A stretch of 64,000 nt of DNA. It comes from an uncultured Alphaproteobacteria bacterium (GTDB lineage Bacteria > Pseudomonadota > Alphaproteobacteria > Rs-D84). Where the stretch lies: assembly GCA_944389345.1 (NCBI GenBank), contig CALXMA010000001.1, positions 69,117 to 133,116 on the forward strand, read 5' to 3'. The stretch's first letter is position 1, and the number at the start of each line of letters is the position of its first letter. The notes under the pieces are model-generated. The model had not been told where the DNA came from, searched no databases, and saw nothing but the letters and a program-made list of their open reading frames with translations. The position numbers and the translations under genes are program-made. Shown here piece by piece: positions 1,211 to 48,716 of the stretch.

Positions 1211-1240
1211 TTGCACGATATACGTGATTTTTTCTAGAAT
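1211..1240 (+). promoter_or_regulatory. sigma70-like promoter for the giant Cys-rich protein gene
   Basis: TTGCAC (1211-1216), 18-nt spacer, TAGAAT (1235-1240), about 20 nt upstream of the SD GAGAGGA and ATG 1263. Confidence 0.4.
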
Positions 1241-1262
1241 AAAATACAAAAGAGAGGAAAGT

Positions 1263-4200
1263 ATGGGAAAAAATCGCTGTTTTCTGGCTATCTTAGCTTC
1301 TTTGGTTATCGGTATTTTTGCGGGTACGGGTGCACACGCGGCGTACGATAACTGCTCTATTCAGTATACCAGTTGTAATTCTGGGTACTATATGAGTGGT
1401 TCGGGTGCCGGTAATTCGTGTAACGCATGTTCCAGTGCAAACAACACCACGTCTACGCGGTCGTGTACGCGGACTTGTTCTATTTCTAATGGAACTTGCT
1501 CCTATTCCGGTTCTACCCAGAAATGTAATGGTAAGTATACCGGTGGTGCCGGTGGCACATCGGGGGTCAGTTCATGTACTGGGTGTTCCAGTTATGGTGA
1601 GTGTACCGGCGGGACGATGAGTATTTCCTGTAACGCGAGTTATGAACTGTCGGGCAGTTCTTGCGTTGCGTGCGGTACCGGTGAATATAGTACCAAGGGT
1701 TCCAACAGTTGTAGTGCATGTACAAACAAACCAGCGAATTCCCATTACACCGGCAATGGTACATCCAATAACTGTTCGTGGGCATGTGATTCTGGGTATC
1801 ATGAAGAAGGCGGTTCTTGTGTACCAGATTGTTCCACATCAAAAGCATGTTCGTCGTTGGGTGCCGGTTGGCAGGGTACGTATAACGAATGTACCCAGAA
1901 CCAAGGTTCGCAGTGTTATAAGGCTTGTTTGGTCAGATGCAGTGGTAATGACACAGGTGAATGTCCGGCGAACGCATCATGTACATATAACACCGGTTAT
2001 AACTACTCTGGCACACAATATTATGGCGGTTCGTGCAATGCAGGCGGTTTGTGCCCAGTCAGCACCATATCATGTAATTCTGGATACTATAAAAATGGCA
2101 GTTCGTGTATTGGCTGTTCCACGGTCAGTGCCAGTGGCGATATAGTAGACAGCACATCAATCACGGGTGGCGACAGAATAACCGAATGTACCGGGAATCA
2201 CACGGGTGGTGCCGGTGGCAGCAGTGGTTCGGGTTCTTGTACCGGATGTTCTTCGACCAGAACATACTGTGAATGCGATTCGGGATATCATGTCGTAGGT
2301 TCGGGTGCCAGTTGCTATTGCGCATTGGATTGTAGCACAAGTGTTGCATGTCCGTCTGGTTATCCCGGCACATATAATGAATGCGACGGCGAAGACGAAA
2401 CAGATTGTAGCAGAACGTGCAGTACGCCATGTTCTGGACGCGCGTCATGCCCGGCCAATGCAAGTTGTTCGTACAACACCAGTTATACAACATCTGGCAC
2501 ACAATATTATGGCAGTTCGTGCGATGCCAGGGCTGTGGCCTGTCCAGTATCGTCGTTCACATGTAATCCGGCGTATCAAAAAAGTGGCAGTTCGTGTGTT
2601 GCATGTTCCTATAACGAAACCAGTGGCGCGTGCAGTTGTTCTGGTGGAACACACCCGAATGGTTCCGGGTCCTGCGTCAGTTGCAGCAAATCTTGCGCCA
2701 GTGTTTCGGGCTATACCCAGGGTACATATAACGCGTGCGATGGCGAAACAAACAACAAGTGCTATCGTGCATGCGTGGCGTCCGATATTGCGAACGCAAC
2801 CAGCGTAACGGGTACCGTGACCAAGGGTGGTGTAAAAACTTGTAAGGCAACAATGTGCGCGGATGGATATTTCGTGTCTGGTTCCGGATGCAAGGTTTGC
2901 CCGGCGAATTCTGGTGCGTGCGGTGAATCTTCGGATCCTGATGGATTTACATGCAACCCGGGATATCACAAAGATGGTGATTCTTGCGTACCTGATGAAT
3001 ATTCCATCGCGTTGAACAAGAACGGTGGTACCGGCGATATCGCGGCCAGTGTGACGTGTCGTCATGGTGAAAATTGCCAGTTGCCGACATCGGGTCTGAC
3101 ACGTGCTAACTATGACTTTACTGGTTGGGGCACCGAATCAACATGCACCCAGGGTGTATATTCCAAGGTGTTCACTTCTGCGACCACGATGTACGCATGC
3201 TGGTCCCAGAATACTGAAAAGTGCCAGGTTGGCAAGTACTATAATGGTTCCACACACGTGGCCTGTCCAAAGGGTTCATACTGCACAGGTGAAGGCAGTA
3301 CCAACGCAGGAACCGCGGGATGCAGTCAGGCATGTCCAAACAGTGGTACAACCGACGGCACGGGCGCATCTGCAATCACGTCGTGCTATATAACCTGCTC
3401 TGGTAAAACTATTACGGGCGGTACATTGACGGCGGATTCGGCCAAAGAATATTACAGTGGTTCGGCGTATGGCACATGTACATATACCGCAGACTGCGAT
3501 CCGGGTTATGTTGCCCAGAATAATGGTACGGCGTCTGCGACGTGCCGTGTGTGCACCGCTGGTGAAAACTGTCCGGGTGGCACAGATGACACTGAACCTG
3601 ATGACTGTCCCGAAGGCGAATATTGTGGCCCGGGCGAAGAACCCCAGGCATGTCCAGAAGGTGGAACGTCTGACGTTGGTGCGGGTTCTATAACAGAATG
3701 CTATAAGACATGTCCGTCGACAATCAGTGTTGATCATGCATCGTCGGTGAAATCTGATGGTCATGCGTATCACGACGGGACCAGTGGGTACAAGGCATGT
3801 ACATATACGGTGACGTGTGAAAGTGGCTATGAAGCCCAAGGAAACGGTACCGCATCGCCAAAGTGCGTATGGGCCGATCCGGATGCATGTCCGCCGGGGT
3901 CATACTGCCCACCCGAAGAAGAAGAACCCCTGTCCTGTCCAGCAGGTGGAACATCTGATGGTGGCGCAACCGAAGTGGCCGACTGCTATCGCGCATGTTC
4001 GGGCACGTCCACAACAGGTGGCACATTGGCACCCGTCAATGCCAAGGAATACTATACAAGTGGCGCGTATCCAGCATGTAAGTATAACGCAACATGCCAG
4101 GCAGGATACATGGCCGTGGGTAATGGCACCGCGTCGGCAAAGTGCGAACCGTGCGAAGATGGTGATTACTGTCCGGCCGGCACAACCGAAGACGACGAGC

Positions 4201-7200
4201 CAGAAGAATGCCCGCCTGACCAGGTTTGCGAAGGTGGTGAAGAACCCGTGGCTTGCCCAGACGGTGGTAAAACCGACGGTGGCGCAGGTTCTGTGACAGA
4301 ATGCTATAAGACATGTCCGGCGACCATAACGGTTGAAAACGCATCGTCGGTGAAATCTGATGGCAACGCGTATCACAATGGCACAACCGGGTACAAAGAA
4401 TGTACATATACGGTAACCTGTGCCGAAGGATACAGCCCGCGCAATAACGGCAGTGCAAACCCGACATGCGTTTGGGGTGATGCCAGCGAATGCCCAGAAG
4501 GATTCTATTGCCCGCCAGACAGCGATACACCTATTGCATGTCCAGAAGGCGGTGATTCCGACAAAGGTACAACGACCGAAACAGAATGCTTCAAGGAATT
4601 CGACCCATACAGTGGATTCGAAAAAGGTACTGCGTCGGCCAAATGTAAATGGGATGCTGGTGAAAAGGACTATATACGTTGCTCTATCGTGAACGTACAT
4701 ACGTGTGACGCGGGATATTACTATGGCCAGCAAAATGCGTTCAGCTGTATCGATCCGGGTTCGGGTTATTACAGCCCGGCGGGTGATGTGGATCGTACCG
4801 CATGTCCGACAGACGCAAATGGTGGTCGTGTCCAGTCCACCCCGAATGCAGAAAGTTATAGCGATTGCTATACCACATGCGATTTGAGCAAGGAAGACGT
4901 CGCGAATTCTACGACCGTGGCGGCGGCACAGAATACAGTGTCCGCAACCAGCGAAACCGCGTACCAGGCATGCTCTTATAGTGTGACATGCGAAACGGGT
5001 TATACGGTCGGTGGCAACAATACGGCGAATCCGTCTTGTAATGCCAATGAATACACGATTACGCTGAATAAAAACGGTGGCACCGGCAGTGTACCAGAAA
5101 CAATGAAGTGCACATTTAACAGTGGTAAATGCGAACTGCCCAAGACAGACGCGTTGACCCGCCCGGGATATTCTACCCAGGATAACAAGTGGTGCACCGG
5201 CCGTGATGGTACAGGTTCATGCTACTATGGTGGCCAGAACACGGGCGTCAACATATCCGAAGACGGTACGGCGGCTACGCTGTACGCGGTATGGGTGCCA
5301 AATGTGTACACGGTTAATCTGGATCACCAGAATGCCGATACAGACGGCGCACCGGGTACTGTGTACCTGAAATATGCGACGGGTTGGTTCAGCAACCAAG
5401 GTGCGACAACACCTATTGCGAAACTGACAACCGTTCCGGTTCGTGCGGGATATGAATTCGCGGGTTATTACAACGCGACAACCGCAGGTACCCAGGTTAT
5501 CGGTACAGATGGTACGTTCATAACATCTGAAAATGCGTTGACAATGACGACCAAAGAACCGACAACTATCTATGCAAGATGGGCAACGGGTACCATAACC
5601 TGTGAAGAAGGTACTTATTATCCAGGTACTGGTGCGGAATGTCTGCCCTGTGAAGATGGCAAATACTGTCCGGGTGGTGAATACGAAACCGACAGTGGCG
5701 AACAAGGTGGTTTGGAATCGTGCCCAGACGATGGTATCGCTGGCGAAGATGCAACATCTATGGCCGCGTGCTATAAGACAGGTCTGGATTACACCGCAGA
5801 ACATGGTTCAGGAACACAAACCTGCGACTATGACGTAGATTCCAGAACGTACAGTGCAGAATGTCGCGATTTCAAGATTGACGCATGTAACGCCGGTTAT
5901 TGGCGCCAAGGCGAAAGCGATACGGATTGTACAGCTGTTGGCCAGGGTTGGTACAGTGGTGCGAATACAATCACACGTACCCAGTGCCCGAATGGCGGAA
6001 ACACAGAAACTGAAACCGCAACCCAGGTTCAGGACTGCTATAAGACTGGTGTAGATTATACAGCGAACTATGGTTCCGGAACCCAGCGTTGCTTCTATAC
6101 CAGTGGCGAAGGCACCAGTGCAATATACCAGCGCGACTGCGACACCAAGAAGATTGACGAATGTCGTGGTGGATATTACCTGGCAGGTCAAGACGATACA
6201 GACTGTACCGAAGTTGGAAACAACTATTACAGTCCGCAGAGCGACACCGAACGCTATGCCTGCCCGGCCGGTGGTGAAACAGGCGAAGACATGAAGACCG
6301 CCGACACGCCGATGGTGTGTAAACGTGATGGCGAACCATATACGGGCGCACATGGTACTGGGGAACGCACATGCTTCTATACCAGTGGCGAAGGTGATGA
6401 TGCAATATATCTGAGTAGTTGCGAAAATGTTACAATGACTAAGTGCGACGCTGGATATTATTACAGCATATCGCTGAAAGACGACTGTACCGCGGTTGGC
6501 AAGGGTTGGTACAGCCCCGCCGATGACCTGAGCCGTTATCAGTGCGTGGACGGTGGTACAACAGAAAACGCAACCAGTGCATCTGAGTCTATGTGCTATC
6601 GCACCGATATGGCGTGCCCAGTGGACAATGGTACGGGTGAACAGACATGTAATTACGACGAAAGTGCCGGTGATTACACAGCCAACTGTCAACAGTGTAT
6701 GGTTACAGCCTGTGACGAAGGATATTCGTTGGTTGATAATACGTGTACCCTGTGTCCAGAAGGCAGTGTCTGTGACGAAGGCGAAGAAAAGACCTGTGCC
6801 GATTTAACAGGTGGTCAGTATCCGAATTCTGAAATCGGTACCGAAGATGTGTCTATGTGCTATCGCGACTGTGCGTTGGCGCCAAACGCATCGGTGATGA
6901 CGGGTCATGATTACTATACCGCCCCAGACACCTGTGCAATACAACGTTGCGCGGCCGGATATACACTGGAAAATGGCGCGTGCGTTGAATGCCCCGAAGG
7001 CAGTTTCTGCGACGGCGAAACGGACCCAGACCCAGATGATCCAGGCAGTGATATAAAGTCCTGTGCCGATTTGGGTAATGGCGAATGGGCGAATTCGTTG
7101 CCAGGTGCCACGGATGAAAGCGGTTGCTATAAGGTCTGTAAAGCGTACGATGTAATCAATGGTACCGCAGAACCCGTCAGCGACAAGGCGTTCTGGCCGA

Positions 7201-7934
7201 ATGACTGCGAATTCGAAGGCAAGTCAGAAACCGGAAATCCGTGCGATATTATCGATGGCGTCTGTGTCGAAACGTCGTGCATCGGTGGATACGAAATGAT
7301 TGACGGTAAATGCGAACCGTGCAACCGCGAAGGCGCACAAGGATATCTGCCAACAGGTATTTGCCAAATCGAATCCTGTGTCAGTGGATATCACCCGAAC
7401 GGCGACCAGTGCGAAGAAGACGTGCAAGAATGTTCTGTGCCGAATGCAATCTATGCCGAAAAAGTTTGGGATTACAAACTGAAAGCGTACAGCGATTGCT
7501 TGGTCAGAGAATGCGAATACGGATTCCATATCGCATCTAATGCGTGCGTATCTGATGTCCAGCCGTGCGATGTCGACAATGGTGCCGGATTCAAAGAATG
7601 GGATCACGACCTGAATAAGTGGGGCGAATGCGAGGCATCGGTCTGCGACCCAGGTTATACATCTGACCCATCGATGACCAATGAACGCACCAAACAGTGT
7701 GGCAGATGCAAGAATGCATACAGCATTGACGGGGATTTGGCTGCAACAGATTTCAGACGTGAATGCGAAATTGCATCCTGTCTGTACCAAGGCGAACGGT
7801 TCGATTTGCAGAACAACGAATGCGTACCGATTTGCCCGACCGAAGAATATTCGGACGATACAGGTACTATGAAATGGAACCCAACCACAAAGAAGTGTGA
7901 ACGTACATGCTTTGACGGTTATACAATGTGGTAA
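1263..7934 (+). CDS. Giant (2223 aa) secreted cysteine-rich repeat protein with ephrin-receptor-like/GCC2_GCC3-type Cys modules and Listeria-Bacteroides-type repeats
   Basis: ATG 1263 follows the SD GAGAGGA; the track start 1224 (GTG) lies inside the predicted promoter/5'UTR. Signal peptide MGKNRCFLAILASLVIGIFAGTGAHA. Dozens of modules have the form C..GYY...C..CP.GG.[ST]D.GA.S...CY. Three repeats resemble YSIALNKNGGTG...YDFTGW...MYACW. A strong terminator follows the stop. Confidence 0.85.
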   Translation: MGKNRCFLAILASLVIGIFAGTGAHAAYDNCSIQYTSCNSGYYMSGSGAGNSCNACSSANNTTSTRSCTRTCSISNGTCSYSGSTQKCNGKYTGGAGGTSGVSSCTGCSSYGECTGGTMSISCNASYELSGSSCVACGTGEYSTKGSNSCSACTNKPANSHYTGNGTSNNCSWACDSGYHEEGGSCVPDCSTSKACSSLGAGWQGTYNECTQNQGSQCYKACLVRCSGNDTGECPANASCTYNTGYNYSGTQYYGGSCNAGGLCPVSTISCNSGYYKNGSSCIGCSTVSASGDIVDSTSITGGDRITECTGNHTGGAGGSSGSGSCTGCSSTRTYCECDSGYHVVGSGASCYCALDCSTSVACPSGYPGTYNECDGEDETDCSRTCSTPCSGRASCPANASCSYNTSYTTSGTQYYGSSCDARAVACPVSSFTCNPAYQKSGSSCVACSYNETSGACSCSGGTHPNGSGSCVSCSKSCASVSGYTQGTYNACDGETNNKCYRACVASDIANATSVTGTVTKGGVKTCKATMCADGYFVSGSGCKVCPANSGACGESSDPDGFTCNPGYHKDGDSCVPDEYSIALNKNGGTGDIAASVTCRHGENCQLPTSGLTRANYDFTGWGTESTCTQGVYSKVFTSATTMYACWSQNTEKCQVGKYYNGSTHVACPKGSYCTGEGSTNAGTAGCSQACPNSGTTDGTGASAITSCYITCSGKTITGGTLTADSAKEYYSGSAYGTCTYTADCDPGYVAQNNGTASATCRVCTAGENCPGGTDDTEPDDCPEGEYCGPGEEPQACPEGGTSDVGAGSITECYKTCPSTISVDHASSVKSDGHAYHDGTSGYKACTYTVTCESGYEAQGNGTASPKCVWADPDACPPGSYCPPEEEEPLSCPAGGTSDGGATEVADCYRACSGTSTTGGTLAPVNAKEYYTSGAYPACKYNATCQAGYMAVGNGTASAKCEPCEDGDYCPAGTTEDDEPEECPPDQVCEGGEEPVACPDGGKTDGGAGSVTECYKTCPATITVENASSVKSDGNAYHNGTTGYKECTYTVTCAEGYSPRNNGSANPTCVWGDASECPEGFYCPPDSDTPIACPEGGDSDKGTTTETECFKEFDPYSGFEKGTASAKCKWDAGEKDYIRCSIVNVHTCDAGYYYGQQNAFSCIDPGSGYYSPAGDVDRTACPTDANGGRVQSTPNAESYSDCYTTCDLSKEDVANSTTVAAAQNTVSATSETAYQACSYSVTCETGYTVGGNNTANPSCNANEYTITLNKNGGTGSVPETMKCTFNSGKCELPKTDALTRPGYSTQDNKWCTGRDGTGSCYYGGQNTGVNISEDGTAATLYAVWVPNVYTVNLDHQNADTDGAPGTVYLKYATGWFSNQGATTPIAKLTTVPVRAGYEFAGYYNATTAGTQVIGTDGTFITSENALTMTTKEPTTIYARWATGTITCEEGTYYPGTGAECLPCEDGKYCPGGEYETDSGEQGGLESCPDDGIAGEDATSMAACYKTGLDYTAEHGSGTQTCDYDVDSRTYSAECRDFKIDACNAGYWRQGESDTDCTAVGQGWYSGANTITRTQCPNGGNTETETATQVQDCYKTGVDYTANYGSGTQRCFYTSGEGTSAIYQRDCDTKKIDECRGGYYLAGQDDTDCTEVGNNYYSPQSDTERYACPAGGETGEDMKTADTPMVCKRDGEPYTGAHGTGERTCFYTSGEGDDAIYLSSCENVTMTKCDAGYYYSISLKDDCTAVGKGWYSPADDLSRYQCVDGGTTENATSASESMCYRTDMACPVDNGTGEQTCNYDESAGDYTANCQQCMVTACDEGYSLVDNTCTLCPEGSVCDEGEEKTCADLTGGQYPNSEIGTEDVSMCYRDCALAPNASVMTGHDYYTAPDTCAIQRCAAGYTLENGACVECPEGSFCDGETDPDPDDPGSDIKSCADLGNGEWANSLPGATDESGCYKVCKAYDVINGTAEPVSDKAFWPNDCEFEGKSETGNPCDIIDGVCVETSCIGGYEMIDGKCEPCNREGAQGYLPTGICQIESCVSGYHPNGDQCEEDVQECSVPNAIYAEKVWDYKLKAYSDCLVRECEYGFHIASNACVSDVQPCDVDNGAGFKEWDHDLNKWGECEASVCDPGYTSDPSMTNERTKQCGRCKNAYSIDGDLAATDFRRECEIASCLYQGERFDLQNNECVPICPTEEYSDDTGTMKWNPTTKKCERTCFDGYTMW
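3337..4540 (+). repeat. Tandem ~600-bp intragenic duplication (module order A-B-A-B) inside the giant gene
   Basis: 3650-3880 and 4250-4480 align almost base for base (gaatgctataagacatgtccg...gcatcgtcggtgaaatctgatgg...tgtacatatacggt). 3340-3555 and 3940-4150 encode the parallel CP..GT[ST]DG.GA....CY..CSG...TGGTL...AKEYY block. Confidence 0.8.
5052..5582 (+). repeat. Two adjacent Listeria-Bacteroides (Flg_new-like) repeats at protein level; a third copy lies at 2999-3203
   Basis: YTITLNKNGGTGSVPETMKC...RPGYS...LYAVW, followed by YTVNLDHQNADTDG...RAGYEFAGYY...TIYARW. The spacing matches the Y.v.fd.nGG...GY.F.GW...lyA.W pattern as I recall it. Confidence 0.6.
5772..6740 (+). repeat. Four consecutive ~85-aa Cys modules (intragenic tandem repeat)
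   Basis: Each unit reads Y[KR]T[GD].(D)YT(A).[HY]G[ST]G[TE]Q.C.Y......C.......C.[AG]GY[WY]......DCT[AE]VG.[GN][WY]YS......R..CP.GG. Confidence 0.7.
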
Positions 7935-8135: not shown

Positions 8136-8327
8136 TTAATTGCAACGATCGTTGCACGTGTATACTGTTGTGGACGATGAACAATAACTGCTGACCGTTA
8201 CGCCAGAACTGCTAACACTGTATCCCGATGGTACGGTACTTGTTGTGATACACTGGTACGTCCCAGCGATACCGGGTCCGGCCAGACCACATATAAGTGT
8301 GGCAATAATTGGTATTTTGATTTTCAT
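8136..8327 (-). CDS. Small (63 aa) secreted Cys/Ser/Thr-rich protein, member A of the small Cys-rich family
   Basis: Strong SD GGGAGG lies 7 nt before the ATG. Signal-like N-terminus MKIKIPIIATLICGLAGPGIAG. The mature part has 4 Cys. It is preceded by the conserved leader also seen at 48.4-48.7 kb and 31.5 kb. Confidence 0.6.
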   Translation of the reverse strand: MKIKIPIIATLICGLAGPGIAGTYQCITTSTVPSGYSVSSSGVTVSSYCSSSTTVYTCNDRCN

Positions 8328-8545
8328 TGATAAACCTCCCTTTTCTCATTGTGTTTTGATAATGAAAAAACCACCGGAAAAATTCAGGTGGTTGGAGGTT
8401 CACAGCTATATCAGGTATAGTGTGCTTATTCGATATATTCGCACCCTCCAACCCAAATAAGAAGTTGGAGATTTTTTTCGTCGTCTAGACGCCTGATGCG
8501 GGCTGTGACACCCCGACGGGGGAATTCCCCCACGCCACTGTGTAG
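8328..8545 (-). promoter_or_regulatory. Structured 5' leader (attenuator/riboswitch-like), copy A
   Basis: Minus-strand RNA contains CGUCGGGGUGU (8518-8508), ACGACGAAAAA (8484-8474), hairpin CUCCAAC (8470-8464)/GUUGGAG (8452-8446), the competing strand CCUCCAACC (8398-8390) and a terminator. It is homologous to 48442-48681 with compensatory changes. Confidence 0.6.
8363..8393 (-). terminator. Intrinsic terminator inside leader A, about 37 nt upstream of the start codon
   Basis: RNA AACCACC-(11-nt loop)-GGUGGUU followed by UUUU. Its 5' arm shares AACC with the alternative helix strand CCUCCAACC. Confidence 0.65.
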
Positions 8546-8608
8546 TGTACCTGAATTTATTGCTTATAACAATAGATTTTTTTCAATGCATTGTATAAAA
8601 TCAATGTT

Positions 8609-30963: not shown

Positions 30964-31482
30964 TTACCTGTAATAGCAATTTGATGTGTACACATAGGTC
31001 CCCGTGGAATCGGAACCCACGGTTCCAGACGGCAAATAGCACGATGTAATAGATGTTGATGCCTGGGCCGAAGTGCCAGAATTTGGGCACGGCGTACAGC
31101 CAGACGTCCCATTAGACGTCACACCATAATATCCCGCCGCACAGGCGTACGAATATGTCTTGTCACACGTACCATTGCAATTGCATACACCCGTGTATTT
31201 ACGGACATATCCCGTACCATAGTCCGTCCATCCACTGCCGGAACAACTGCTGGCACACTGTATACAGCAATCTTCGAAAGTAACCATTTTGCACCGACCT
31301 TTGCTGGGCAATGTTACATTTTTAGGAATAAATCCAGAATAACGTTTGGCGCACGCGTATATGCGATCACAGTGCTTTGTGCTGTGGTCGCAACTGTATT
31401 TGTATTAAGTACTGCTGCAATGGCCGGCATATGCATACCCCGATATTCCGCACAATACAACTGCTATTAGTGTTTTTTTAAT
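30964..31482 (-). pseudogene. Decayed member B of the small Cys-rich secreted family (ATT in place of ATG; in-frame TAA at 31407-31405)
   Basis: The frame reads (I)KKTLIAVVLCGISGYAYAGHCSST-stop-YKYSCDHSTKHCDR...CTPCPNSGTSAQASTSITSCYLPSGTVGSDSTGTYVYTSNCYYR. Its C-terminus parallels member C (CASPGTSSAGTTSISGCCIPSGTTGTDSTGSYRYSSSCCWS). The track lists only the 115-aa tail. Confidence 0.6.
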
Positions 31483-31640
31483 TTCAGAACCCCTTTTTCG
31501 GTTTGTTAAACGAAAAAAACACCAGAAAAATTCAGGTGGTTGGGGGTATTTCACGTCCCCACGGACGCACAGCATAGAGGTTTAGATGCCTCAGTACAGG
31601 AATTCCCCGTACCGCTTGCGCGGTCTAGCACGAAAGATAT
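31483..31640 (-). promoter_or_regulatory. Degenerate copy B of the conserved leader
   Basis: Plus strand 31513-31546 aaaaaaacaccagaaaaattcaggtggttggggg versus 8365-8398 aaaaaaccaccggaaaaattcaggtggttggagg. It shares GGGGAATTCC with copy A. The terminator stem is weakened by a mismatch and the middle hairpin is missing. Confidence 0.45.
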
Positions 31641-47799: not shown

Positions 47800-48441
47800 T
47801 TAAGACCAACAACAACTGGACGAATATCTGTATGAACCAGTGCTGTCCGTTCCGGTTGTGCCAGATGGTATACAACATCCACTGATGCTGGTGGTGCCGG
47901 CCGATGACGTGCCCGGTGATGCACATGCCGTGCACCCAACGCCCGTTGACATATCGATTATACCTGTTCCCCAATATCCGGCGGAGCAACGATACTGTAC
48001 CTTTTTACTGCATACGCATGTACTGGTATTACATGTTGCGGTAATTTTTTGTTCGCGACCGCCACCGACACTGGTCCATCCGGTTGATTCACAATCATCG
48101 CACGTACCGTCGCAACCAGACCCACCAGATTTCTCGCATAAATACCATGTGTAGGGCCCACAAGAACCATGGCTGTATGTTTGCGCCTTGCGCGTATATC
48201 CAGACAGACAAGATGAACAACTGTTTATTTTGAATCCAGAACCAACCACTGTACCATCGGTATAACAAGACGAAGTTTGCGTTGCACATGGACCCGGATT
48301 GGTCGCCGCCACGCCACCACCAGACAGATTTGAACAAGACGTGGCACGGCACAGCGATGTAATTGCCAACGCCGGTTCGGGCACCGCCAACACGCCAACG
48401 GCGCACACGGCGCACAGTTTTGAAATTATTTGCGTTTTCAT
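47800..48441 (-). CDS. Small (213 aa) secreted cysteine-rich protein, member C of the family
   Basis: SD CAGGAG before ATG 48441. Signal MKTQIISKLCAVCAVGVLAVPEPALA. The mature part has more than 25 Cys and includes CSAGYWG...GCTACASPGTSSAGTTSISGCC, the same module as the giant protein's C..GYY...C..CP.sGt...ga.si..CY. Confidence 0.8.
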   Translation of the reverse strand: MKTQIISKLCAVCAVGVLAVPEPALAITSLCRATSCSNLSGGGVAATNPGPCATQTSSCYTDGTVVGSGFKINSCSSCLSGYTRKAQTYSHGSCGPYTWYLCEKSGGSGCDGTCDDCESTGWTSVGGGREQKITATCNTSTCVCSKKVQYRCSAGYWGTGIIDMSTGVGCTACASPGTSSAGTTSISGCCIPSGTTGTDSTGSYRYSSSCCWS

Positions 48442-48681
48442 TTCAATCTCCTGAACTATTGTTGCGATAACAAAAAACCACCGCTTTGCATTGGTGGTCA
48501 GGAGGTTGAGAACAATCTTGAGAATTGTGTCGCTTATTATGATATTCACGACCCTCCTGACCCTTTGGAATCAGGAGTTTATTTTTCGTCGTGATATTAA
48601 AATGGGCGCATTTGCGCCACGCTGAACACCCCGACGCTCAAGCACGGGTTCTCACACCCCATCGACGAAACACTCGTCGAC
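48442..48681 (-). promoter_or_regulatory. Structured 5' leader (attenuator/riboswitch-like), copy C
   Basis: RNA blocks are CGUCGGGGUGU (48636-48626), ACGACGAAAAA (48592-48582), hairpin CUCCUGA (48577-48571)/UCAGGAG (48560-48554), competing strand CCUCCUGACC (48505-48496), then a terminator. Confidence 0.65.
48472..48498 (-). terminator. Intrinsic terminator inside leader C, about 30 nt upstream of the start codon
   Basis: RNA ACCACC-AAUGCAAAGC-GGUGGU followed by UUUUU. Confidence 0.65.
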
Positions 48682-48687
48682 ACTTCT

Positions 48688-48716
48688 ATATTATCGCAAA
48701 CGGAAATTGATAGCAA
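48688..48716 (-). promoter_or_regulatory. sigma70-like promoter driving leader C
   Basis: Minus strand TTGCTA (48716-48711), N17, TAATAT (48693-48688). Confidence 0.55.

Follow-up and report, generated by a model that had tools for sequence, protein, structure and literature searches.

A family of leader RNAs with three exchangeable strands and two reciprocal pseudoknots in gut Alphaproteobacteria: a probable riboswitch-like attenuator

How is a short gene for a 63-amino acid (aa) secreted protein controlled in an uncultured alphaproteobacterium of the Rs-D84 lineage? The gene lies in a 64,000-nucleotide (nt) stretch of DNA (contig CALXMA010000001.1, positions 69,117 to 133,116), referred to here at its full length as the window. 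An initial annotation proposed that the DNA ahead of this gene (copy A) and ahead of a second gene (copy C) encodes the same kind of leader RNA, in which an antiterminator and a terminator exclude each other. All of the strings and coordinates claimed for the two copies are present, on the minus strand, and direct reading of both bears out the common order of blocks. The answer reached here is that the leaders probably form a new, riboswitch-like family of conditional transcription attenuators that work by three-strand exchange. Members of the family have in common a set of helices, two pseudoknots, three corresponding strands, an overlap of the last strand with a terminator hairpin and an association with genes. 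The switch noted at first is only the 3′ part of a larger, doubly pseudoknotted RNA of 175-215 nt, which belongs to a large, multi-copy family with both types of switch helix, that of A and that of C, coexisting in single genomes.

Copy A occupies positions 8365-8537 of the minus strand, where every string named for it was found, and is best read as the 5′ leader of the mRNA for the 63-aa protein. Transcription would start near 8537. The parts of the leader, its promoter-like site and its gene are as follows, where SD stands for the Shine-Dalgarno sequence, ORF for open reading frame, and PK1 and PK2 for the two pseudoknots.

8544-8572, minus strand: promoter-like site read from the sequence, with a -35 box TTGTTA (8567-8572), a 17-nt spacer and a -10 box TACACT (8544-8549)
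8516-8533, minus strand: hairpin P1, GUGGGGG AAUU CCCCCGU, with covariation in 124 leaders
8500-8514, minus strand: hairpin P2, GGGU/GCCC; its loop U8508-A8504 is the 5′ strand of PK1
8492-8497, minus strand: 5′ strand of PK2, AUCAGG, whose partner is the P6 loop CCUGAU (8410-8415)
8479-8491, minus strand: hairpin P3, CGUC UAGAC GACG, followed by an A-rich linker of seven A (8472-8478)
8464-8470, minus strand: strand 1, CUCCAAC, the 5′ arm of the anti-antiterminator hairpin, pairing with 8446-8452
8445-8453, minus strand: strand 2, GGUUGGAGG, the partner common to strand 1 and strand 3
8422-8444, minus strand: stem-loop P5, with a GUGC/GCAC stem and the 15-nt loop GAAUAUAUCGAAUAA (8426-8440)
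8406-8420, minus strand: hairpin P6, CUAU/AUAG; its loop CCUGAU (8410-8415) is the 3′ strand of PK2
8400-8404, minus strand: 3′ strand of PK1, UGUGA, pairing with U8508-A8504
8390-8398, minus strand: strand 3, CCUCCAACC, which forms the antiterminator with strand 2; its last 4 nt lie inside the 5′ arm of the terminator
8365-8393, minus strand: predicted intrinsic terminator, AACCACC (8387-8393)/GGUGGUU (8369-8375) with a U-run (8365-8370), as in the minimum-free-energy structure given by RNAfold
8136-8340, minus strand: downstream gene, with SD GGGAGG (8335-8340), ATG (8325-8327) and an ORF (8136-8327) for the 63-aa, Cys-rich signal-peptide protein

Read from 8560 to 8320, the strand presents TTGTTA-17-TACACT, the GGGGGAAUUCCCCC hairpin, GUCGGGGUGUCACAGCCCG, and the CGUC/GACG hairpin with its seven A. 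These are followed by CUCCAAC, a loop, GGUUGGAGGG, a short stem carrying GAAUAUAUCGAAUAA, and the CUAUA/UAUAG hairpin. At the 3′ end, AACCUCCAACC continues into AACCACC...GGUGGUUUUUU, and GGGAGG and the ATG come last. The P5 loop is a near-repeat of the form GAAUAU-NNN-GAAUAA. The G-run of P2 (8511-8514) has a predicted alternative partner in ACCUC of strand 3, and this fourth, G-rich strand, the GGGG of P2, was not part of the initial description. A simple promoter and terminator scanner did not flag the promoter of copy A; the consensus of the family alignment has TATAAT at the equivalent -10 position, approximately 7 nt ahead of P1. No Pfam family matches the 63-aa protein.

The argument for a switch begins with the comparison of copies A and C. 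Their three strands read CUCCAAC/GGUUGGAGG/CCUCCAACC in A and CUCCUGA/GGUCAGGAGG/CCUCCUGACC in C. The compensatory change claimed for all three strands is real, but it does not consist of three substitutions. From C to A, CA becomes U in strand 2 and UG becomes A in strands 1 and 3, with a C-G and an A-U pair giving way to one U-A pair. As two pairs are replaced by one, the helix of copy A is 1 base pair (bp) shorter. One implied match between blocks did not hold: GUCGGGGUGU of copy A (8508-8517) is not homologous to CGUCGGGGUGU of copy C (48626-48636), whose bases form the 5′ strand of a different hairpin and precede a copy-specific insertion. In the family alignment, it is homologous to GAUGGGGUGU of copy C (48654-48663). 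The 5′ arm of the terminator does overlap strand 3, with AACC common to both in A and ACC in C. The blocks of copy C (48716 to 48441) follow the order of copy A, and its leader spans 48472-48685.

48472-48716, minus strand: copy C including its promoter, with a -35 box at 48711-48716 and a -10 box TAATAT at 48688-48693
48662-48680, minus strand: P1
48646-48659, minus strand: P2
48650-48654 with 48507-48511, minus strand: PK1
48637-48642 with 48517-48522, minus strand: PK2
48632-48636 with 48587-48591, minus strand: P3
48571-48577, minus strand: strand 1, CUCCUGA
48553-48562, minus strand: strand 2, GGUCAGGAGG
48529-48552, minus strand: P5
48512-48528, minus strand: P6
48496-48505, minus strand: strand 3, CCUCCUGACC
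48472-48498, minus strand: predicted terminator, ACCACC (48493-48498)/GGUGGU (48477-48482)
47800-48454, minus strand: downstream gene, with SD UCAGGAG (48448-48454), ATG (48439-48441) and a 213-aa, Cys-rich signal-peptide protein

The proteins encoded behind copies A and C are unrelated to each other, so the leader has not merely been co-duplicated with one gene. No conserved ORF spans the region of the leader on either strand.

Relatives were collected starting from homologues of the copy C protein, which led to locus L008, with a clear leader of the type found in copy A (AAC), and to locus L011, with one of the type found in copy C (UGA). A first pattern, built from the blocks common to A, C, L008 and L011, was scanned against one genome per species. 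It gave at least 120 genome loci, all from metagenome-assembled genomes (MAGs) of gut Alphaproteobacteria among the matches listed. Many belong to Candidatus Enterousia and the others to its relatives, and one MAG alone supplied at least 8 loci. The genomes of these organisms are mostly smaller than 1 Mb (PMC12306168). A second pattern, which barred U after AACCUCC, was scanned against metagenomes. At least 85 true members, nearly all of the AAC type, came from rumen, human-gut and other gut samples, showing that the AAC type is no rare oddity. The pattern scans thereby added more than 200 further copies. A search with nhmmer of the Enterousia-clade loci (0.9 Mb) found 146 leaders, 132 of UGA type and 8 of AAC type, and the two types sometimes share one contig, as they do in the window. 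The patterns fix GAAUAU, AAUAAGC and AACCUCC and leave other positions free to vary. Counts for the three strands and the terminator below refer to 197 distinct leaders, and covariation to 124 aligned leaders.

Nothing in this family appears to have been catalogued. At gathering score, Rfam release 15 matches only tRNAs in the window and in 14 diverse loci. At E values up to 10, copies A and C give nothing relevant, only weak, terminator-driven matches (SgrS, ctRNA). No description of such a riboswitch or structured RNA was found in the literature on Enterousia or Rs-D84.

Across the 197 leaders, the three strands change together. All three are of the copy C kind (UGA) in 110 and of the copy A kind (AAC) in 67, and strand 3 predicts strands 1 and 2 almost perfectly. 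Rarer switch helices are of the types AGC and CGC, and the few discordant leaders are regex mis-picks or decayed copies. Strands 2 and 3 are complementary over 9-12 contiguous bp in 191 leaders. The pair GGUCAGGAGG/CCUCCUGACC accounts for approximately 110 leaders and GGUUGGAGG/CCUCCAACC for approximately 70, while GGCUGGAGG/CCUCCAGCC, GCGGGAGG/CCUCCCGC and GUCGGGAGG/CCUCCCGAC occur once each. Single-base variants are wobble-compatible, with A changed to G in strand 1 (seven leaders) or strand 3 (13 leaders) opposite a U of strand 2. In the alignment, strand 1 pairs with strand 2 in 98.4% of cells and strand 2 with strand 3 in 96.6%, the residual "unpaired" cells being mostly a one-column offset of the shorter AAC type. 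Selection on RNA pairing, first argued from A and C alone, is supported by this family-wide covariation.

In 180 of the 197 leaders, an energy-supported hairpin ends at a U-run and has its 5′ arm starting 6-7 nt into strand 3. Since the 5′ arm lies inside strand 3, antiterminator and terminator are mutually exclusive, as had been proposed for copy A. Strand 1 is the upstream competitor for the 5′ arm of the antiterminator, and its type is concordant with those of strands 2 and 3. The simple scanner misses the terminators of the leaders because their outer loop exceeds 8 nt.

The remainder of the RNA is held together by hairpins and two pseudoknots. All seven pairs of P1 have changed on both sides, with 96.7% of cells paired. 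P2 (GGGU/ACCC) is paired in 99.2%, with G-C, G-U and A-U occurring at one pair and no mismatches. All four pairs of P3 covary (94.5% paired). The P5 stem is 98.1% paired with C-G/U-A covariation, once it had been redefined on the alignment; the columns as assigned from copy C proved wrong for the family. P6 is 99.4% paired and swaps A-U for U-A between helix types.

PK1 joins five bases of the P2 loop to the five that separate P6 from AACCUCC. It is paired in 620 of 620 cells, and four of its five pairs have changed on both sides, in 244 cells. Its sequences are CACAG/CUGUG in A, GAGAA/UUCUC in C and CAUAG/CUAUG in the close relative L246. PK2 joins the segment that follows P2 to the loop of P6 (AUCAGG/CCUGAU in A, CUUGAG/CUCAAG in C), and all five aligned pairs covary. 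Both pseudoknots were examined by comparing partners in cis with partners in trans. At least six contiguous Watson-Crick pairs of PK2 form in cis in 149 of 174 leaders, against approximately 1% when partners are exchanged between leaders. The design is reciprocal, in that the loop of each hairpin pairs with the 3′ flank of the other. The idea that the pseudoknots are unique "zip codes" for each copy was discarded, as several leaders within one MAG have an identical PK1 pentamer. An antisense partner of the P5 loop was sought in all of the collected DNA, and the matches were further leader copies and chance ones. Taken as a whole, the pseudoknotted ON structure is 96.1% paired, and both sides have changed in 28 of its 46 pairs. 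It scores 0.396 for covariation, compared with 0.148 for shuffled alignments (0 of 500 reach the observed value) and 0.04-0.09 with slid partners.

Two folds of the RNA can be set against each other. The minimum-free-energy folds of A and C have z = -4.65 and -5.58, respectively. RNAfold on the two copies and RNAalifold on the family agree on P1, a pairing of the P2 GGGG with CCUC of strand 3, the strand 1:strand 2 hairpin and the terminator; the same nested prediction shows PK1 and PK2 as ordinary long-range helices. We read this predicted fold as the OFF state. The ON state comprises local P2 and P6, both pseudoknots, and strand 2:strand 3 closing a three-way junction, an arrangement that lies outside nested folding models. 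Local P2 and P6 covary on their own, so the ON-type helices are real.

The following course of events is proposed. The RNA would begin approximately 7 nt past a sigma-70-type -10 box and fold P1, P2, P3, the strand 1:strand 2 hairpin, P5 and P6, with PK1 and PK2 joining its two halves. In the OFF state, strand 2 would be held by strand 1, and the 5′ half of strand 3, paired with the P2 GGGG, would stack on PK1. The last 3-4 nt of strand 3 would then enter the GC hairpin with its U-run, and transcription would stop 40-70 nt before the start codon. In the ON state, strand 3 would displace strand 1 and pair with strand 2 over 9-12 bp. This would close the three-way junction of P5 and P6 and allow P2 to close locally. 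The base of the terminator stem would be lost, and RNA polymerase would read into the gene.

Several points weigh against this account. In the nested model, which leaves the ON pseudoknots unscored, the OFF fold is favoured by 11-16 kcal/mol, and the ON fold may be rare or depend on considerable assistance. No covariation specific to the GGGG:CCUC pairing was seen, and it remains a prediction. Termination, read-through and the setting of the choice by an effector are putative and drawn from sequence. The regulated genes give no metabolic clue. Conservation of the P5 loop and of AACCUCC is partly built in by the search patterns, and the loop is kept with 1-2 changes in variant copies found by nhmmer and a fuzzy search. 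Finally, the leaders are related and multi-copy, so that the covariation counts overstate the number of independent events.

The expression platform is of a familiar type. The S-box (SAM-I) riboswitch and the pyr (PyrR) leaders of Bacillus are three-tier designs of anti-antiterminator, antiterminator and terminator. Like these, the new leader has three successive, mutually exclusive helices, with an upstream strand that sequesters the 5′ arm of the antiterminator. The 3′ arm of the antiterminator overlaps the 5′ arm of the terminator, and the intrinsic terminator lies just before the SD. Unlike them, it has no sequence or Rfam similarity to either, its halves are linked by two reciprocal pseudoknots, and its genes are for secreted proteins rather than a metabolic pathway. 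A PyrR-type attenuator was rejected, as the strand 1:strand 2 loop varies in sequence and length and there is no PyrR match in Rfam. The anti-antiterminator of the new leader is a plain hairpin with a variable loop, and its conserved bases reside in the domain closed by the antiterminator. This suggests an effector with an ON rather than an OFF effect. We rate the leader as a new RNA family, with an unusual reciprocal double pseudoknot, on this familiar type of platform.

The unpaired bases with the strongest conservation, namely the GAAUAU-NNN-GAAUAA loop of P5, the junction GGAGGG/AACCUCC and GAUGGGGUGU, fall within the domain that strands 2 and 3 close, or adjacent to it. On this basis, we guess that an effector acts by stabilising the compact ON fold. 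That effector could well be a small molecule or ion that the RNA senses by itself, though at less than an even chance. An RNA-binding protein is only slightly less likely, and the remaining chance, smaller again, is that it is neither of these. It is tentatively suggested that the leader is an orphan riboswitch. The double-pseudoknot RNA would itself sense a small molecule or ion, which may be a cue from the host or from a partner. By three-strand exchange it would then turn on several XRE regulators and the greater part of the secretome in these ultra-reduced gut Alphaproteobacteria (Candidatus Enterousia, order Rs-D84). In a more exotic version of this reading, the invariant GGAGG/CCUCC helix would mimic a Shine-Dalgarno/anti-Shine-Dalgarno duplex, with the leader reading ribosome availability.

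The alternative that survives best, although it is rather unlikely, is that the same switch is run by a trans-acting RNA-binding protein, as in the case of PyrR or TRAP, with the RNA as platform and not as sensor. Such a protein might bind as a dimer to the tandem GAAUAU/GAAUAA repeat of the P5 loop, or to the invariant GGAGG/CCUCC helix. A tandem hexamer repeat in a 15-nt loop on a short stem would suit it, and the switch-helix core and P6 are near-invariant while the pseudoknots drift, which fits sequence-specific recognition. The regulon of envelope and secreted proteins and XRE regulators has no common metabolite, and a few global regulators often serve reduced genomes (PMC12306168). However, no candidate protein was found, the distal switch helix tolerates four different sequences, and a 175-215-nt fold with two pseudoknots exceeds the needs of known protein-dependent attenuators.

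A clearly less probable alternative is a constitutive, structured 5′ untranslated region. Here, a leaky terminator and the folds would fix expression, or protect or insulate the mRNA, and the alternative pairings would be folding intermediates. The OFF fold is indeed the predicted minimum for A and C, no effector is known, and the element moves with its own promoter as a cassette. The mutual complementarity of three strands through at least four helix types is nonetheless hard to explain unless both pairings matter. The overlap of strand 3 with the terminator is also conserved, and many 200-nt leaders would be costly to maintain in a sub-1-Mb genome.

The genes behind the leaders bear on the remaining alternatives. 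Nearly all leaders are followed on the same strand by an ORF with an SD, the ORF starting 40-105 nt beyond strand 3. The gap between U-run and SD is 24 nt in A and 17 nt in C, which leaves no room for a second promoter, so the genes must be transcribed through the leader. In the Enterousia set, almost all of the downstream ORFs encode signal-peptide proteins of several unrelated families. Many of these contain 5-12% Cys, one is an outer-membrane beta-barrel, and most are without a Pfam match. In the AAC set from metagenomes, many of the downstream genes encode XRE-type helix-turn-helix proteins of 60-110 aa (Pfam HTH_3, HTH_31, HTH_19). Loci with XRE, regulator or mobile-type genes include L142, L151, L158, L166, L190, L205, L206, L211, L217, L226, L230, L231 and others. 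A C5 DNA methylase, an HsdM subunit and a phage Rha protein also occur in this set. The regulon therefore reaches past secreted proteins to regulators and mobile-element-like genes.

The SD itself raises the possibility that control is foremost translational, with the CCUCC-bearing strands 1 and 3 acting as an anti-SD that masks the ribosome-binding site and the terminator being secondary. In copy C, the SD UCAGGAG repeats the core of strand 2. Of 64 GGAG-type sites behind UGA-type leaders (loci L012-L131 included), 38 have the SD CAGGAG, which matches strand 2 and is complementary to strands 1 and 3. It is far less common elsewhere, being used by 7 of 80 other genes at these loci and at 2 of the 26 sites that follow AAC-type leaders. 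The SD of copy A, GGAGGUU, has its complement in AACCUCC. This bias suggests either that strand 1 or 3 pairs with the SD or that leader and SD have a shared ancestry as a cassette. The second option would account for the match by descent, and the extended match is found in only approximately one third of all leaders. A canonical terminator is present in 180 of 197, and the SD is unpaired in the predicted minimum-free-energy folds. Control foremost at translation is thus improbable, marginally more so than the constitutive leader.

It is very improbable that the element is a small RNA gene in its own right, or that it is mobile or repeated DNA whose position upstream of genes is incidental. It is multi-copy and has its own promoter and terminator, from which a stable RNA of 175-215 nt is expected. 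A scan of contigs classed as viral gave only three true copies (L253, L255 and L256, all on IMG/VR contigs and of AAC type). Against this, the leader is always co-oriented with an ORF and SD 40-105 nt downstream, and the narrow U-run-to-SD gaps of A and C leave the gene without a promoter of its own. There are no terminal inverted repeats or target duplications, and BLAST of the phage and plasmid collections gave no match to the leader. The terminated leader may still have a role in trans. That the three-strand correspondence is due to chance or to manual alignment is refuted and has a negligible likelihood: an automatic pairwise MAFFT alignment of A and C does misplace several blocks, for which reason the 124-sequence alignment was used instead, but the strings stand at their coordinates, and 177 of 197 independent-looking leaders, with four helix types among them, show it again.

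With the conditional attenuator as the preferred reading, other known systems can be compared. Like the T-box, the new leader is a multi-helix RNA of approximately 200 nt with many copies per genome, a highly conserved antiterminator set against a terminator, and a copy-specific variable segment in a conserved scaffold. Unlike it, the variable segments pair in cis (PK1 and PK2) and not with tRNA. A T-box leader was rejected on the basis that there is no specifier loop, T-box sequence or Rfam match, and the downstream genes are of the secreted and XRE kinds, not aminoacyl-tRNA synthetase or amino-acid genes. Cyclic di-GMP riboswitches (GEMM-I/II) and related second-messenger riboswitches also occur in many copies upstream of surface, secreted, regulatory and occasionally phage genes. 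They differ from the new leader in architecture, and it has no GEMM-I/II match in Rfam. No GGDEF motif turned up in a crude search of 1.05 Mb sampled from the genomes that carry the leader, which is weak evidence, as the sample is biased and falls short of a whole genome. As in the ZTP and cobalamin aptamers, a long-range pairing of 5′ and 3′ subdomains across a variable linker positions a strand of the expression platform. The new leader differs in having two reciprocal pseudoknots, both predicted to persist in the ON and OFF folds.

Two further candidates were rejected. An ANTAR-regulated leader would have tandem conserved hexaloops, whereas the loops here are of 15 nt (P5) and a variable 5-13 nt (P6), and the strand that overlaps the terminator is the closing helix of a three-way junction. 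A leader-peptide attenuator of the trp/his type does not fit, as the leader ORFs of A and C (35 aa and 39 aa) are unrelated and the family alignment has many indels that are not multiples of three. The mini-ORFs of the P5 loop, AUA-UAU-UGA or AUU-GAA-UAA, are lost in variants.

The family is a large, well-supported structured RNA that is absent from Rfam and resides in a widespread uncultured gut lineage. Many 200-nt leaders are a large investment for genomes of less than 1 Mb, and they apparently control the envelope and secreted proteome. The switch helix exists in at least four orthogonal versions, which sometimes share a genome and represent a natural compensatory-mutation experiment. The identity of the effector would show the signal by which obligate gut dwellers deploy surface proteins. 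The leader also marks transcription starts and regulon membership in MAGs with almost no functional annotation.

The window contains one further copy, found in a sweep with BLAST and nhmmer. Copy B is decayed, and its remains are as follows.

31512-31615, minus strand: copy B, with P1-P3 retained, the terminator weakened (one G lost) and the interval from strand 1 to strand 3 deleted

A single hybrid, CCCCCAACC, remains where the segment from strand 1 to strand 3 was lost. The deletion apparently arose by recombination between two direct CCUCCAACC repeats, strands 1 and 3. Behind copy B lies a pseudogenised paralogue of the copy C gene, whose start codon reads ATT instead of ATG and which is interrupted by a stop after 25 codons. 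The product of the ORF at 30964-31311 (minus strand) has 44% identity to the C-terminal half of the copy C protein (E 3e-20).

Copy C carries a 39-nt insertion in the loop of P3 (48594-48631, minus strand). Most Enterousia-type leaders have such an insertion, which is absent from copy A and approximately ten others. Within it are a second GGGGUGU and, ahead of a U-rich run, a GC hairpin (GGCGC AAAU GCGCC), a combination that the simple scanner calls terminator-like. This hairpin may be a pause site or a first-stage terminator. In another relative, with a 1.04-Mb scaffold, the orthologue of the copy C protein has a completely different leader (positions 2800-3000 of loci L006 and L009). It has its own repeated competing strands, CACCGAU/AUCGGUG with a U-run, followed by CCCCGAUU, AAUCGGUGGG and the SD AAUCGGGGGG, and is possibly an unrelated switch on the same gene family. 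One of the leaders on IMG/VR contigs lies upstream of a 595-aa membrane protein and is without an obvious U-run terminator, which hints at alternative expression platforms.

Contigs from termite-gut metagenomes (L133, L148, L154, L173, L174, L204, L242 and L248) carry a repeat that has several blocks in common with the leader. These are GGAGG, a stem, an exact 17-nt GAAUAUAUUGAAUAAGC, a hairpin and AACCUCC, with AGCUUGGAGGUU where the terminator would be expected. The adjoining ORFs resemble retrotransposon proteins. These matches were set aside from the family, as the DNA looks like a eukaryotic (termite) repeat; the likeness is either chance amplified by copy number or a genuine relationship.

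Convergent with the 63-aa gene behind copy A is an ORF at 1224-7934 (plus strand) for a 2236-aa, extremely Cys-rich and repetitive protein, upstream of which nhmmer found no leader of the copy A/C family. This protein has CxxC-rich modules and a weak match to the Listeria-Bacteroides repeat. A tRNA-Met gene (1042-1118) lies just upstream of the ORF.

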